Shown here piece by piece: positions 12,433 to 16,567 of a stretch of DNA of 64,000 nt (its first letter is position 1; each line of letters begins with the position of its first letter). Source of the DNA: Minisyncoccota bacterium (GTDB lineage: Bacteria > Patescibacteriota > Minisyncoccia > Phycocordibacterales > Phycocordibacteraceae); the NCBI GenBank assembly GCA_022842945.1, contig JALHOO010000001.1, forward strand, positions 24,847 through 88,846, read 5' to 3'. Made by a program: the position numbers and the translations under genes. The notes under the pieces were generated by a model. That model was given only the letters and a program-made list of their open reading frames with translations. It searched no databases and was not told where the DNA came from.

Positions 12433-13071
12433 CTACAGAAGAATGCGCATCAGGCGCACGATTCCTGCGAGCGTGAGTGCATCAGCCGAGAGAAGGACCG
12501 ATTCCTTCCATGGCATGAAGTAGAGGTCACTTTCTTTTGCGTGATGAATCAGGTGCGCGCGAGGTCTCCATCGCGTTTCCGAAATTTGCACGAGGTCCTT
12601 AATCGGGCATTCAAGAGCAAATGTCGGCATGCCCTCGCCCTCGTGAGGATTCTGAACGAAGTACATACGATCAGAATTTACCGGAAGTCCTGGAAGCAGG
12701 CGAGCACCTGAAGTGTTGATGCCCCCTTCTTCTTGGCTTTCGCGGCATTGGGCTTCCTCGGGAGATTCATCGACTTCGACAAAACCACCGAGTAAGCACC
12801 ACACCTTTTCCGGCCCCATATTAGGCCGAGATTCGTGTACGAGACCGATGAGTATCTCGCCTGCAGGTGTCCTTGACCAAGTTACGGTCGTGGCGCCACC
12901 TTTTCCAGGTTTAAATGCCCAGCCGTTAAAATTCTCAGGACGCCATCCGAAGACAAAGACCCCATACTCAGAACTTATTTCCAGATGGCGCGGATAGATG
13001 TTTTCGCCATCTGCCCGAATAGTCCATGTAAGTGGTTTTTCTGGTGGAACAGGCGCTATAGCAAATGTCAC
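12433..13071 (-). CDS. NUDIX hydrolase
   Basis: Complete Nudix box GGFVEVDESPEEAQCRESQEEGGI (G-x5-E-x7-REUxEExGU). Confidence 0.7.
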   Translation of the reverse strand: MTFAIAPVPPEKPLTWTIRADGENIYPRHLEISSEYGVFVFGWRPENFNGWAFKPGKGGATTVTWSRTPAGEILIGLVHESRPNMGPEKVWCLLGGFVEVDESPEEAQCRESQEEGGINTSGARLLPGLPVNSDRMYFVQNPHEGEGMPTFALECPIKDLVQISETRWRPRAHLIHHAKESDLYFMPWKESVLLSADALTLAGIVRLMRILL

Positions 13072-13175
13072 GTGTGTAACTCCACTGTGTGAATATGAAC
13101 GTCAATCTTATTGCATTTAATCACATTTAGCTTAATAAGTCAATATGTAGGTACCTATCCCCTAATACCAAGTAT

Positions 13176-13781
13176 ATGAAGAAAAGGAGTATAATACGGG
13201 AAATGAGGAAAACCATCATGATGTGGGATGTGTTGAAATCCCTTAATGAAGAACATCAGTCTGCAGCAAGAAAAGACTTGAGGCTTACTTTTGAGTCCGA
13301 AACTGGTTTCGTTAAAAGAGATCAGCTCATCTATCTTTACGCGATACAACATGAAGGGTTTCTCCTTTGGAGAAAAGCAAGACACCTGTGGTGGCGCTAT
13401 TTCCACAAGCATAGGTTCCAAGGAGTTTGCTTGCATTGCAAGCTAGAAGATCTTGAACTTTCAAACTACAAAGAGGTTGGTAGAAAGCAGCGAGAGCTGA
13501 TGGGAAAGATAGATAGGGTCTTAAAAAAGGCGGAAAACTGTACACCCAAACTTGTTGAGGTTAAGGATTTGCATGACGGCTTCTATGAAGATGGCAAGAA
13601 GAAAATGGAGCGGAACATAAGGCTTACTCAGGCAGGAGAGGACTTCGTCGAGTTTGAAGGTCTTTTAAAGAAATTATGGGACGAAGATTGGAAGGTCATG
13701 ACAGGAATTGTGAGCACAATTATTGCTCTGATAACCAGCTTAACTTTATTGATCATTAAAGTTATCGAATTAGCTTCTTAG
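13176..13781 (+). CDS. Hypothetical tail-anchored membrane protein (passenger of the IS element)
   Basis: Soluble N-terminal region of about 175 aa and a single C-terminal TM helix (IVSTIIALITSLTLLIIKVI). AT-rich codon usage differs from the neighbours. Confidence 0.45.
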   Translation: MKKRSIIREMRKTIMMWDVLKSLNEEHQSAARKDLRLTFESETGFVKRDQLIYLYAIQHEGFLLWRKARHLWWRYFHKHRFQGVCLHCKLEDLELSNYKEVGRKQRELMGKIDRVLKKAENCTPKLVEVKDLHDGFYEDGKKKMERNIRLTQAGEDFVEFEGLLKKLWDEDWKVMTGIVSTIIALITSLTLLIIKVIELAS

Positions 13782-13930
13782 CTTTTGGTTTAATTTGGTT
13801 ATCCACAATATTAAATATGGTCTATGTAGGCCATATTTACCTGATTATCGTTGACGCTGTCGCTGTCGCGTGTATACTACTAGTACATATGGCTTCGGCC
13901 TCGCCCCGCCTCGTGTGGGGCAAAATTCGT

Positions 13931-14344
13931 TTATGGGAAAAGAGTGGTTTTTAAAGAAGCCACGACTTTATTAAAAGTTGGCTCATCCAGTGTTGCCATT
14001 TTCTTTACGAGCCTTCTGGCATCAATTGTTCTGACCTGTGACAGTATTACAGATCCGTCTCCCTCGTCGCCGATTTCACCTAAGTAAACGTGCCACTTAC
14101 TATTCTCCCTTTTCCTCCCAGTCAGGGCGACGCCAAAGAATTGAGATTTGTTAAATCCCCGAATTATTAAGACTGGTCGATCAAAGTTCTCTCCCGTACC
14201 GTCTTGCTCTGTACCAATGTTAACTCCTAGGGCACACCACCAAATCTCACGTTCATTGTAGAAAGGATGGTCTTCTTTAGAGTGCAGACCCTTCTTGGTT
14301 GGATGCCATGCCTCAAAATCCTTAGTATAGGGTTCCTCGTTCAT
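13931..14344 (-). CDS. MazF/PemK(Kid)-family endoribonuclease toxin-like protein with N-terminal extension
   Basis: Aligns with Kid/PemK: EIWWCALGVNIGTEQDG...RPVLIIRGFN...FFGVALTGR...VILSQVRTIDARRL...NKVVASLKTTL, versus the Kid pattern EIWLV.LDPT.G.EQ.G.RPVLIV...FN...V.VT...Q.RTID...N.VL.RL.TIL. Confidence 0.55.
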   Translation of the reverse strand: MNEEPYTKDFEAWHPTKKGLHSKEDHPFYNEREIWWCALGVNIGTEQDGTGENFDRPVLIIRGFNKSQFFGVALTGRKRENSKWHVYLGEIGDEGDGSVILSQVRTIDARRLVKKMATLDEPTFNKVVASLKTTLFP

Positions 14345-14431
14345 TTGCAGATTATTCTACGCCTTTTTGCGCGGTGCGCTATACTTTCTACATGTCCGAA
14401 CGCAACAACTTCTTCGACCTCTTAAAGAAAG

Positions 14432-15253
14432 CTATCGGCTCGCCCGTTCCAACAGGTGGGCAAACACCGGAACCGGAGAGTTCCGAAGGTTATAACGATA
14501 CGCAAACTCGTCCAAGTACGCCTGAAGGTGCTGGGGAGACACGAACGCGTACGTCCCCCGAACAGACTTCTTAAACTGGCCCCAGAAGCCTTCAATGGTG
14601 TTGGTGTGCGTATCGCCCCAGGTGTAGTGATTCTTGCCGTGCTTCACGTTGGTATGGCTGTAGCCGTACGCGCGGTATGAGAGCTTATCGTAGCCACGGT
14701 ACTCATCCGTCATAACGCGGGTACCGCGCTCTACGTTCTCTTTAACCATAGGCAGGATAACTTCTGCACGGCGGTTAGGGGCCTTCTTCACACGTACGCG
14801 TCCCTGACGCTCAACCATACCGATAACCGCGTCCTTGTTCTTGAACTTCATCGAGTTCTTGCCCTGCTTTCCGTAGTACGTCTCGTCTATCTCAACTACG
14901 CCGGACAACGGATCGCCGCCCTGCTCCATGAGGGCGCGAATCTGGTGTCCCATGCGCCACGCGCACTTGTACGTCACGCCAAGCTGACGCTGTAGCTCCT
15001 TGGCCGAAACCCCGTTCTTCGAGGACGCAAAGAGGAATATCGCATGGAACCAGAGCGTGAGGGGTGTAGAGGACTTCTCAAAGATAGTCCCTGCAAGGGG
15101 GTGTATCTGCTTTCCCTGAGGGTTAGCGTATGCCTTGCGCTTACTCATACGGCAAAACTGCTTCGCGTCAGGGTATTTCTGGCGGAATATGTAATCTAGG
15201 CACGCTTCATCTGTAGGAAACTCTTTGTGGAGGTCTTTAATCGTGTACTTCAT
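14432..15253 (-). CDS. IS1595-family (ISXO2-like) DDE transposase
   Basis: Motifs VVEIDETYYG, MTDEYRGY and HTNTIEGFWGQFKKSVRGTYAFVSPQHLQAYLDEFAYRYNLRN, which are the characteristic IS1595 C-terminus. An N-terminal zinc-ribbon-like region is present. Confidence 0.8.
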   Translation of the reverse strand: MKYTIKDLHKEFPTDEACLDYIFRQKYPDAKQFCRMSKRKAYANPQGKQIHPLAGTIFEKSSTPLTLWFHAIFLFASSKNGVSAKELQRQLGVTYKCAWRMGHQIRALMEQGGDPLSGVVEIDETYYGKQGKNSMKFKNKDAVIGMVERQGRVRVKKAPNRRAEVILPMVKENVERGTRVMTDEYRGYDKLSYRAYGYSHTNVKHGKNHYTWGDTHTNTIEGFWGQFKKSVRGTYAFVSPQHLQAYLDEFAYRYNLRNSPVPVFAHLLERASR

Positions 15254-15319
15254 TACCTATATCCTATACCAAGAGCTACTTGGCATCAAGGGATAGGTAC
15301 CAATATGTATTCCTTTTGG

Positions 15320-16567
15320 CTATTTTGCTCTCCAATATAGGAAGACTCCAAATCCAAGAACGAAGAAGCTGGTAAGTACACGTCCGGCGATAAGTCCTGC
15401 TAGGCCGAAGAGGAGGATACCCGATACCTGAAACAGTATCTGCATGATGGGGTTAACCGTATTGAAGAGATAGAGCGTCTTAACGTGTGCGTGTGCGATA
15501 AGGGCATTCGTAAGAACTCCTCCCATAGTTGCGGCAAGCGTAAGTGCGTACCATTGTGAATATGGAACCGCTTCCATGTAGGCAGGGAAGAAGATCGAGA
15601 AGAGTGGAAACGTAATAAGCATGTAGGCACCTGCAAGGAGCGCGGAAAGAAACGTGCCAACCAGGAGACGATACCCAAGACCCTGTCTAATCTCATGAGG
15701 CTTCTTGCCAACAAACTTCGGGAAGGCGGCCGCCGGGATGAATTTAAAGAGCGCACCAATGCGATCGGGGATGGCAGTTGAGAAACTGTAAATAGCGAGT
15801 GCTGCGGGACCGAGAAGGTGGAAGGTAAGAATATTGTCGATCTGCGAAGCAAGGCTTCCAAGGAGCCCCATGATGCTTAGGTGCCCACCATACCGTAAGG
15901 CCTTCGGGTCTACCGCTGTATTTGGCTTATAGGTAATGAGCGTATGCCGATAGGCAATGAATAGACCAATTGCCTGAGCGATAAGGTTTGCTCCAAGCAG
16001 AATCAATGCGGCGTCATAGAACACCGCAGCAACGCCCACACAAAGATAGTAGGGAATGTTCCACCAGAGACTGTAGAAGAACCCTCGTTTGAAATCCCTC
16101 TTTGCCTGTAGGTATGAGCCATAGGTGCTGAACGCATTGTTCAAAGGAACAAATACGCCAATGAGTATCAGACCCCACCCAATAGTCTGGTCTCCGGTGT
16201 AGAGAAAGTACGCGCCACCTACCCATGCGCCAATGAGGGGAAATATGCCCCAGCGCAACTGAGCCATAAGTGCAGAGTGTACGGACCCTTCAAACCCAAG
16301 TGCGACTGATCGCGTTACAGCACTCTTCATGCCCGTTAGAGTAAAAGCACCCACAACAGCACCGAGAGAGAGTAGGTACTGATATGTGCCGTAGGTTTCC
16401 TTTGTGAGGAAGTGACTGAAGGCGACGTAGAGAAGGAAGGAAGCGACAGATACGAAGATGGTCCCGGCATTTGACCAGAAGCCAGTCGTGGCGAGGTAGA
16501 CCATGTCGGTCTTCGTAAACCGCTCAGCGGAGCGGAGGAGGCGATGGGTTCGGCCACGGAGGTCCAT
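15320..16567 (-). CDS. Polysaccharide/oligosaccharide flippase (Wzx-like, MOP superfamily)
   Basis: About 12 predicted TM helices. The N-terminus is typical of Polysacc_synt proteins (FTKTDMVYLATTGFWSNAGTIFVSVASFLLYVAFSHFLTKETYGTYQYLLSL). Confidence 0.65.
   Translation of the reverse strand: MDLRGRTHRLLRSAERFTKTDMVYLATTGFWSNAGTIFVSVASFLLYVAFSHFLTKETYGTYQYLLSLGAVVGAFTLTGMKSAVTRSVALGFEGSVHSALMAQLRWGIFPLIGAWVGGAYFLYTGDQTIGWGLILIGVFVPLNNAFSTYGSYLQAKRDFKRGFFYSLWWNIPYYLCVGVAAVFYDAALILLGANLIAQAIGLFIAYRHTLITYKPNTAVDPKALRYGGHLSIMGLLGSLASQIDNILTFHLLGPAALAIYSFSTAIPDRIGALFKFIPAAAFPKFVGKKPHEIRQGLGYRLLVGTFLSALLAGAYMLITFPLFSIFFPAYMEAVPYSQWYALTLAATMGGVLTNALIAHAHVKTLYLFNTVNPIMQILFQVSGILLFGLAGLIAGRVLTSFFVLGFGVFLYWRAK

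Follow-up and report, generated by a model that had tools for sequence, protein, structure and literature searches.

In type III toxin-antitoxin (TA) systems (ToxIN, CptIN, and TenpIN; Blower et al. 2011 and 2012, as listed in PMC12548467), an endoribonuclease toxin is neutralized by RNA. The antitoxins of this type consist of tandem repeats that are located upstream of the toxin gene on the same strand, are followed by a terminator, and are processed by the toxin; ToxN itself possesses a Kid/MazF-like fold and is inhibited by RNA. A different arrangement is found in the txpA/RatA and bsrG/SR4 pairs of Bacillus subtilis, where the gene for a small RNA (sRNA), driven by a promoter of its own, runs towards the toxin gene and extends into the 3' end of the latter. 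Here we describe a locus from a Minisyncoccota bacterium, located within a stretch of 64,000 nucleotides of contig JALHOO010000001.1 (the whole stretch is termed the window), in which an insertion sequence (IS) of the IS1595 family carries a gene for a tail-anchored protein along with a gene for a MazF-fold RNase that is paired with a structured sRNA. We consider it likely that this element is a "transporter IS" whose cargo comprises the tail-anchored gene and an RNase-sRNA module, with the sRNA probably restraining the RNase. The name transporter IS, given to IS copies that contain passenger genes, is attributed to the 2009 study of Siguier and coworkers that defined the IS1595 family (PMC3129680). 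Members of this family usually have 8-bp flanking duplications (PMC8101967), and TA pairs are carried by transposons of the Tn3 family (PMC7157771).

The window element combines features of these systems without coinciding with any one of them. Like the known IS1595 transporter IS (Siguier, Gagnevin & Chandler 2009, as cited in PMC3129680), it possesses a DDE_Tnp_IS1595 transposase, short inverted repeats, an 8-bp duplication, and passenger genes located after the transposase gene; compared to those elements, it differs in residing in a Patescibacteria (candidate phyla radiation, CPR) host, in the degenerate nature of its N-terminal zinc ribbon, and in carrying an RNase-sRNA module, which was seen in none of 80 related loci. 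The IS itself is routine, a CPR member with unusual cargo added to a known class of passenger-carrying IS. As in the TA-bearing Tn3-family transposons (PMC7157771), a toxin module lies inside a transposable element and beside the transposition genes; those elements, however, are large paste-and-copy transposons with protein-protein type II pairs, whereas the window contains a 2.2-kb IS with a MazF-fold gene and an RNA partner. The type II pair MazEF, represented in B. subtilis by EndoA-EndoAI (YdcE-YdcD), shares the toxin fold, provides the closest solved homolog, and has the same conserved catalytic Arg and Thr. In contrast to that pair, no MazE-type gene was present upstream at any of 82 loci of the window RNase family (80 metagenome loci plus others), the proteins have a conserved N-terminal extension of ∼30 residues, the loop that precedes the catalytic Arg contains a DGTGxNF insertion, and an sRNA converges on the gene. 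The toxins of txpA/RatA and bsrG/SR4 are small hydrophobic peptides, whereas that of the window is a MazF-fold RNase and its accompanying RNA, of ∼50 nt, is highly conserved in primary sequence. Finally, unlike the type III antitoxins, the window RNA is encoded by a single copy that lies downstream of the RNase gene on the other strand, and a search for tandem or direct repeats upstream of that gene gave none. What appears to be new is a predicted cargo that consists of a MazF-fold RNase and an undescribed structured sRNA, with a pairing that is conserved across the sampled family, along with a putative antisense micro-ORF (open reading frame) on the IS backbone. With respect to the original prediction, which had recognized a toxin-carrying IS1595 element, these results add three refinements: the RNase is paired with an sRNA, the tail-anchored cargo is recurrent, and an antisense ORF is present.

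Several lines of evidence identified the second passenger gene as encoding a MazF-like RNase. The protein matched Pfam family PF02452 (PemK_toxin) with 50.4 bits (cut-off 23.1), a profile of its family matched B. subtilis MazF/EndoA in the PDB with an E value of 1.6e-8, and the best Foldseek matches of its AlphaFold model were MazF structures (TM-score relative to the target of 0.65-0.74), for a model with a pLDDT (predicted local distance difference test) of only 73.6 and a poorly predicted N terminus. Residues R56 and T75 are invariant in the family, and in the profile alignment they coincide with the catalytic residues Arg25 and Thr48 of B. subtilis MazF. Wherever the source names the organism, the family members belong to Patescibacteria lineages. 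No NCBIfam or PADLOC match was obtained for the RNase. Autoinhibition by the N-terminal extension was considered and set aside, as the AlphaFold pLDDT of 36-66 in this region was too poor to judge it. We searched for a protein partner by clustering all ORFs of at least 45 residues located within 700 bp of the 82 toxin genes; no shared protein neighbor and no protein antitoxin of the MazE type emerged across these loci, and the top neighbor "clusters" proved to be translation artifacts of a conserved RNA and of the antisense strand of the toxin N terminus. The gene upstream of the RNase in the window encodes the transposase, rather than the co-transcribed antitoxin that marks a type II pair. 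On the same strand as the transposase gene, the RNase gene follows at a distance of 87 bp, an arrangement in which read-through co-transcription of the two is possible.

Conservation of the locus extends past the RNase coding region, with the DNA 3' of the stop codon being conserved in 68 of the 82 loci; between the window and one family member (L127), 86% of the 57 nt after the stop codon are identical, compared to ∼55% identity of the proteins. On the strand opposite the RNase gene, the conserved block is preceded by a σ70-type promoter, the only σ70-like site found in positions 13000-15450; of 52 homologous loci, 45 have an equivalent promoter (score of at least 9/12) at a constant spacing, versus 4.3% of shuffles. 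Across the family, the predicted sRNA reads in order UACAAAU-GGCUUCGGCC-UC, a stem of 5-9 bp that is rich in GC and capped by a GNRA or UUCG loop, and then AAAAUCGUUUU. A covariance model (R1) built from 45 sequences gave one match in the 64-kb window (57.5 bits, E = 1.4e-11) and 67 matches in 81 toxin loci, all antisense and abutting the RNase stop codon. It also detected the RNA in 4 of 4 loci outside the model set (47.6-61.4 bits) and gave no match in 84 control loci (781 kb). One locus (L110) contains a pair of MazF-like paralogs in tandem, and a separate sRNA copy follows each of them (775-830 and 1357-1411). Two matches of 27 bits in viral contigs were taken as chance, as these sites have no toxin gene and would require an implausible 2-nt loop.

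The fold of the sRNA is backed by covariation. Independent anchoring of the stem in each sequence confirmed the register of hairpin 2, 86.8% of the cells are paired, and 8 of the 10 pairs exhibit compensatory changes. Doubly changed cells number 50, versus 15.7 ± 4.0 in shuffles, none of which (0/500) reached 50; the covariation score of 0.298 compares with 0.126 in shuffles and with at most 0.106 in every slid register. G·U pairs exceed A·C pairs by 22 to 3 on the sRNA strand, and the loop of hairpin 1 is UUCG in 45 of 52 sequences; the G·U excess together with the UUCG and GNRA loops therefore indicates that the fold was selected on the sRNA strand. A coding reading of the block (ATGGCTTCG…) was rejected because its ATG is AGG in ∼10 loci; in addition, the stem covaries. 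A tRNA reading of the conserved downstream DNA was likewise rejected, with ARAGORN giving no match. Neither strand of positions 12900-15500 matched Rfam at E ≤ 1, and a literature search returned no description of the sRNA. On these sequence data we conclude that the predicted sRNA gene converging on the RNase is real and part of the cargo.

The IS element spans 2,152 bp (13150-15301, coordinates re-read from the sequence). Its boundaries, its 22/25 matching terminal inverted repeats, and its 8-bp target-site duplication had been called in the original prediction, and every coordinate held. Within the 25-nt repeats the first 12 positions match perfectly, and in a repeat search the terminal pair was the longest inverted repeat of the region. 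When allowing up to one mismatch, the 12-mer GGTACCTATCCC occurs at exactly two sites in 64 kb, both of them element ends, versus 0.20 expected; a count of 2 was reached in 0 of 100 shuffles. An 8/8 direct repeat would abut both ends by chance with a probability of ∼4^-8 (1.5e-5). No end-like sequence with two or fewer mismatches was found inside the element. Movement of the 2,152 bp as a single unit is supported by three points: the location of the duplication at the outer ends, the lack of internal end-like sequences, and the same architecture throughout the family. The internal layout also agreed with what had been anticipated: the transposase gene accounts for 822 of the 2,152 bp (38%, predicted as the right ∼40%), the remaining left 1.28 kb is AT-rich (39-47% GC, versus 53-57% for the transposase gene and ∼50% for the flanks), and the two passenger genes, tail-anchored and PemK-like, were borne out by the ORFs and the PF02452 match.

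Assignment of the transposase to the IS1595 family, as initially proposed, was upheld by matches to Pfam PF12762 (DDE_Tnp_IS1595; 1.2e-38, 132.9 bits, cut-off 27) and to NCBIfam NF033547 (transpos_IS1595; 196.7 bits, cut-off 75), and by D123, D183, E221, and K228, which are invariant across 33 relatives. The closest proteins carry the annotation IS1595 transposase and come from Patescibacteria, Minisyncoccia, or Saccharibacteria. The CxxC…CxxC cysteines of the N-terminal ∼60 residues are kept in four more distant relatives (L024, L072, L089, and L034) and replaced in the clade of the window transposase (at least ∼64% identity). Three relatives without the ribbon (L020, L022, and L023) still have perfect 8-bp duplications, so this clade has been mobile. 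The Zn_Tnp_IS1595 ribbon is present in all IS1595 groups except IS1016, and thus is typical but not defining (PMC8101967).

We surveyed a set of 80 related transposase loci, one genome per species, together with the closest relative (L013, from a JGI metagenome), with counts over 82 loci; an element was scored as bounded when similar termini were found together with an identical 8-bp flank. By this measure 49 of the 82 loci have a perfect 8-bp duplication, and their ends read GGYRAYTATCCCTTGA. The 49 duplications are each different and have an overall A+T content of 70%. Relatives with transposases of 42-80% identity exhibit the same terminal sequence, perfect duplications at many target sites, and extra DNA after the transposase gene. 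Bounded relatives range from 1,379 to 5,204 bp and always have at least 470 bp after the transposase stop codon; we therefore regard cargo as the rule in this subgroup, which agrees both with the earlier statement that IS1595 elements with passenger genes are known and with PMC3129680. The element is accordingly one IS1595-family transporter IS, of a subgroup with ends GGnnAnTATCCC, the members of which routinely carry passenger genes. The cargo of the subgroup is very varied and includes membrane proteins (L020-L022), a coiled-coil protein (L013), Trypsin_2 peptidases (L036 and L064), and a P63C protein (L072). As a separate observation, the cargo of the L024 element (868-1581) resembles an orphan C5 cytosine DNA methyltransferase, with motifs FSGxG and PQC recognized by eye.

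No PemK homolog was found in the 80 related transposase loci, and no IS1595 transposase was found in the 82 loci with PemK homologs. This mutual absence indicates that the association of the RNase with the IS is a one-off capture, and it bears out the earlier view that a toxin cargo is notable, since it is unusual for this group of IS. Along with the difference in GC content (39-47% versus 53-57%), the lack of cross-occurrence indicates that the cargo was captured and is not ancestral. Capture of an intact module by a 2-kb IS would be a simple route for spreading defense or addiction cassettes among ultra-small bacteria.

The family-wide pairing points to an sRNA that probably keeps the RNase in check in place of a protein antitoxin. 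According to the mechanism that we propose, the DDE transposase would, as in its family, recognize both 25-nt repeats, insert the whole unit at the A+T-rich AATATGTA, and duplicate that site; the transported cargo is the tail-anchored gene plus a complete two-gene module made up of the gene for the MazF-fold RNase and a convergent gene for a ∼50-nt sRNA with its own promoter; and the sRNA would restrain the RNase, replacing the missing protein antitoxin. We slightly favor direct binding of the sRNA as a decoy or pseudo-substrate, because its near-invariant primary sequence is conserved well beyond the needs of pure antisense pairing and its single-stranded 5' UACA(A/U)AU segment resembles UACAU, the sequence cleaved by the closest characterized homolog, B. 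subtilis MazF; ToxN provides a precedent. Restraint by antisense pairing to the end of the toxin mRNA would be almost as likely, given the convergent and overlapping layout. Taken as a full alternative, a type I cis-antisense RNA would base-pair with the toxin mRNA at its 3' end, where that mRNA must read through the same hairpins, and would trigger its decay or block its translation (as for RatA/txpA and SR4/bsrG); such pairing is a possible but rather unlikely explanation of the locus. It would account for the convergent layout, for the sRNA promoter, and for the overlap of the sRNA tail with the stop codon and last codons in essentially all loci, an overlap whose extent depends on the transcript ends. 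The toxins, however, are only 45-75% identical, yet UACAAAUGGCUUCGGCCUC is near-invariant; complementarity in cis is automatic, and therefore antisense pairing leaves this near-invariance unexplained. Known type I toxins are mostly small membrane peptides; at the window locus the convergent sRNA with its own promoter runs over the stop codon of a 137-residue soluble RNase homolog. The cargo carries more weight than the IS. Orphan MazF-type toxins usually are unexplained, and in this family the strictly co-occurring, structurally constrained sRNA with a promoter of its own is a concrete candidate RNA antitoxin for an enzyme of the MazF fold, one that could be tested cheaply; if confirmed as such, it would link the logic of types I and III with the toxin fold of type II. 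If the sRNA does restrain the RNase, the module would be a self-contained addiction or defense cassette that hitch-hikes on an IS.

Three further explanations dispense with an RNA antitoxin or with the unity of the element. The conserved block might be a bidirectional terminator or a stabilizer in the 3'-untranslated region, with the RNase being a regulated housekeeping enzyme that has no antitoxin. The two GC-rich hairpins directly after the stop codon would fit this idea, as would the canonical hairpin and U-run that end the divergent loci L171, L176, and L179, and as would the lack of a protein antitoxin in the RNase family. A terminator, however, needs neither a −35/−10 pair at a fixed distance on the opposite strand, which 45 of 52 loci possess, nor an invariant single-stranded 5' segment, and the G·U excess and the UUCG/GNRA loops place selection on the strand opposite the toxin mRNA, so we regard this account as improbable. 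It is also very improbable that the locus holds a minimal IS beside resident host genes, with the left repeat being a solo or relic end, even though the cargo and transposase differ in GC content, no second copy is known, and the search for an empty site was negative. It is the outermost ends that are flanked by the 8-bp duplication, nothing repeat-like lies between them at up to two mismatches, no minimal version was seen among the 49 bounded relatives, and at the corresponding end of the L023 element the cargo includes a homolog of the tail-anchored protein. Hardly credible, lastly, is an ordinary type II pair with an overlooked protein antitoxin, such as an ORF of 60 residues antisense to the transposase gene or another small ORF. 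On the opposite strand an ORF of 60-66 residues does begin at a distance of 30-48 bp from the start of the toxin gene, but the antisense ORF is conserved in toxin-free relatives of the IS and does not occur at toxin loci without the IS, and the clustering of ORFs around the toxin genes yielded no shared partner.

Returning to the transporter IS with a module restrained by an sRNA, we note several points that weigh against this interpretation. The U-tract of the sRNA is weak in most members; the sRNA, its 3' end, and its effect on the RNase are predictions; and the toxicity of the RNase is itself presumed. On the side of the IS, the closest relative (L013, with an 82% identical transposase) has the ends and no matching duplication, and the window transposase did not match the PF12760 zinc ribbon (Zn_Tnp_IS1595). 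Placement in an ISNwi1-like subgroup is tentative: the element ends GGTACCTAT resemble ggnnatTAT, the ISNwi1 end consensus of ISfinder, and the E221…K228 residues and length of 2,152 bp would fit the ISNwi1 traits of a DDE+K signature, ∼1.75-4.75 kb, and passenger genes. Moreover, no empty-site allele was found. All contigs with the flanking genes or the element, as retrieved by exact-protein look-ups of the transposase, NUDIX, and toxin sequences, were fragments 100% identical to the window and came from one sequencing project, and a 25-nt empty-junction pattern (junction …GCTTAATAAGTCAATATGTATTCCTTTTGGCT…) had no match in JGI metagenomes. The original prediction had named two observations that would speak against it, the absence of an empty site and a failure of the inverted repeats to bound units in other copies; the former is what we found and the latter is not, as the repeats do bound units in other copies. 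Further copies of the element, which that prediction had suggested looking for, were absent from the window. With a single copy known, a claim of recent mobility for this copy is unsupported. As a broader and more tentative proposal, which we are slightly more inclined to doubt than to accept, the locus would represent a new kind of TA module, a MazF-fold RNase held by RNA rather than by a MazE protein and mobilized by an IS in the window, and, separately, the IS1595 subgroup would encode a conserved antisense micro-protein that was missed by annotation.

The likely start of the tail-anchored protein is the ATG at 13218, which yields 187 residues as in database protein P0241 and is preceded by a TATAAT sequence at 13189-13194 and an AGGA ribosome-binding site. 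The protein had no match in Pfam, NCBIfam, PADLOC, or PHROG, and a word-indexed search of 5.8 billion proteins returned only the protein itself. An exhaustive HMMER scan of 1.84 billion cluster representatives identified three relatives at E ≤ 0.001. One of these (P0244) is the product of the 198-residue cargo gene of the L023 element, located beside the same inverted repeat and in the same orientation (tblastn, 26.5% identity over 181 residues, E = 3e-8); another (P0242) is encoded on a 1-kb contig without a recognizable IS end, and the third, a repetitive protein of 972 residues, matches weakly and over part of its length. The tail-anchored protein is therefore not random cargo, as its sole clear full-length homolog occupies the same position in the L023 IS. 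In two loci, genes for tail-anchored homologs are followed by a gene for a small N-terminally anchored membrane protein with the pattern …FYWYxW(K/R)P…C… (L023, 915-1115, − strand; L180, 773-997, + strand). The window has no such gene and holds the RNase module in the corresponding position. This pattern suggests a membrane module of two or three genes, of which the window keeps only the first.

The small antisense ORF runs from just past the transposase stop codon back over the 3' end of that gene and is recognized by the motif (L/F)(T/S)(K/R)xxFxxLLxKAxQP (F..LL.KA..P), which occurs in one antisense frame in 44 of the 82 related loci, versus 0-3 in each other frame. Conservation of the ORF has a period of 3, with third codon positions carrying almost no information, and every synonymous codon for Ala, Pro, and Leu is in use. 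Most of the ORFs encode 45-95 residues. Elsewhere the motif forms the C terminus of cargo proteins of 310-400 residues that belong to Trypsin_2 (L036 and L064) or P63C (L072). The ORF matched no Pfam family, had no PGAP gene in annotated plasmid records, and was not described in the literature retrieved by our search. At a guess, it would act as a regulator of transposition, and it might be a regulatory part of this widespread group of IS that has escaped notice.

Coordinates of features in and around the IS1595-family element, as positions of the window
Feature	Positions	Strand	Details
NUDIX, flanking gene	12433-13071	−	family search
Target-site duplication, left copy	13142-13149		AATATGTA, identical to 15302-15309
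Terminal inverted repeat, cargo end	13150-13174	+	GGTACCTATCCCCTAATACCAAGTA; family-wide core GGYRAYTATCCC
Passenger gene 1, single C-terminal transmembrane helix	13176-13781	+	longest ORF, 201 aa; ORF list
sRNA promoter	13851-13878	+	TTGACG, 16-nt spacer, TATACT; σ70-type
Predicted small RNA	13883-13937	+	covariance model; converges on RNase gene
sRNA 5' single strand			UACAUAU (window)
sRNA hairpin 1	13891-13900	+	GGC-UUCG-GCC
sRNA hairpin 2	13903-13921	+	GCCCCGC/GUGGGGC
sRNA tail		+	AAAAUUCGUUUAUGGG; overlaps RNase stop codon (13931-13933)
Passenger gene 2, MazF/PemK-fold endoribonuclease homolog, 137 aa	13931-14344	−	PF02452 PemK_toxin
Small ORF antisense to transposase 3' end	14374-14574	+	likely start ATG 14392, 60 aa (MSERNNFFDLLKKAIGSP…)
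IS1595-family DDE transposase, 273 aa	14432-15253	−	PF12762, NF033547
Terminal inverted repeat, transposase end	15277-15301	−	reverse complement = GGTACCTATCCCTTGATGCCAAGTA
Target-site duplication, right copy	15302-15309		AATATGTA
Polysacc_synt (Wzx-like), flanking gene	15320-16567	−	family search

The insertion site lies 10 bp past the Wzx-like stop codon and 71 bp short of the NUDIX start; the Polysacc_synt and NUDIX matches agree with the neighbors that had been named beforehand, a Wzx flippase and a NUDIX gene. Both flanking genes are on the − strand with the IS between them (gaps of 13072-13149 and 15310-15319), and because of this position the IS probably cuts NUDIX off from transcription that arrives from the upstream glycan locus. 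In three independent Logan contigs, taken from different samples, breaks fall inside the same 55-bp interval (L002 ends at 13770, L008 starts at 13799, and L004 ends at 13824), in the interval between the tail-anchored protein gene and the sRNA and beside the palindrome TAAATATGGTCTA/TAGGCCATATTTA (13812-13839); these breaks may reflect population variants or an assembly problem. The L006 contig starts at 15303, two bases outside the element. An odd run of 24 nt at the end of L009 (1-24, TTCAGACGTGTGCTCTTCCGATCT) was traced to Illumina adapter and is not biological.

Elsewhere in the RNase family, homologs with the sRNA often are located beside genes for large serine recombinases (L103, L105, L106, L143, and L149), and in L185 the RNase homolog and sRNA lie beside ThiF/Multi_ubiq genes. 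These neighborhoods suggest that the RNase-sRNA module commonly rides integrative elements or defense islands.

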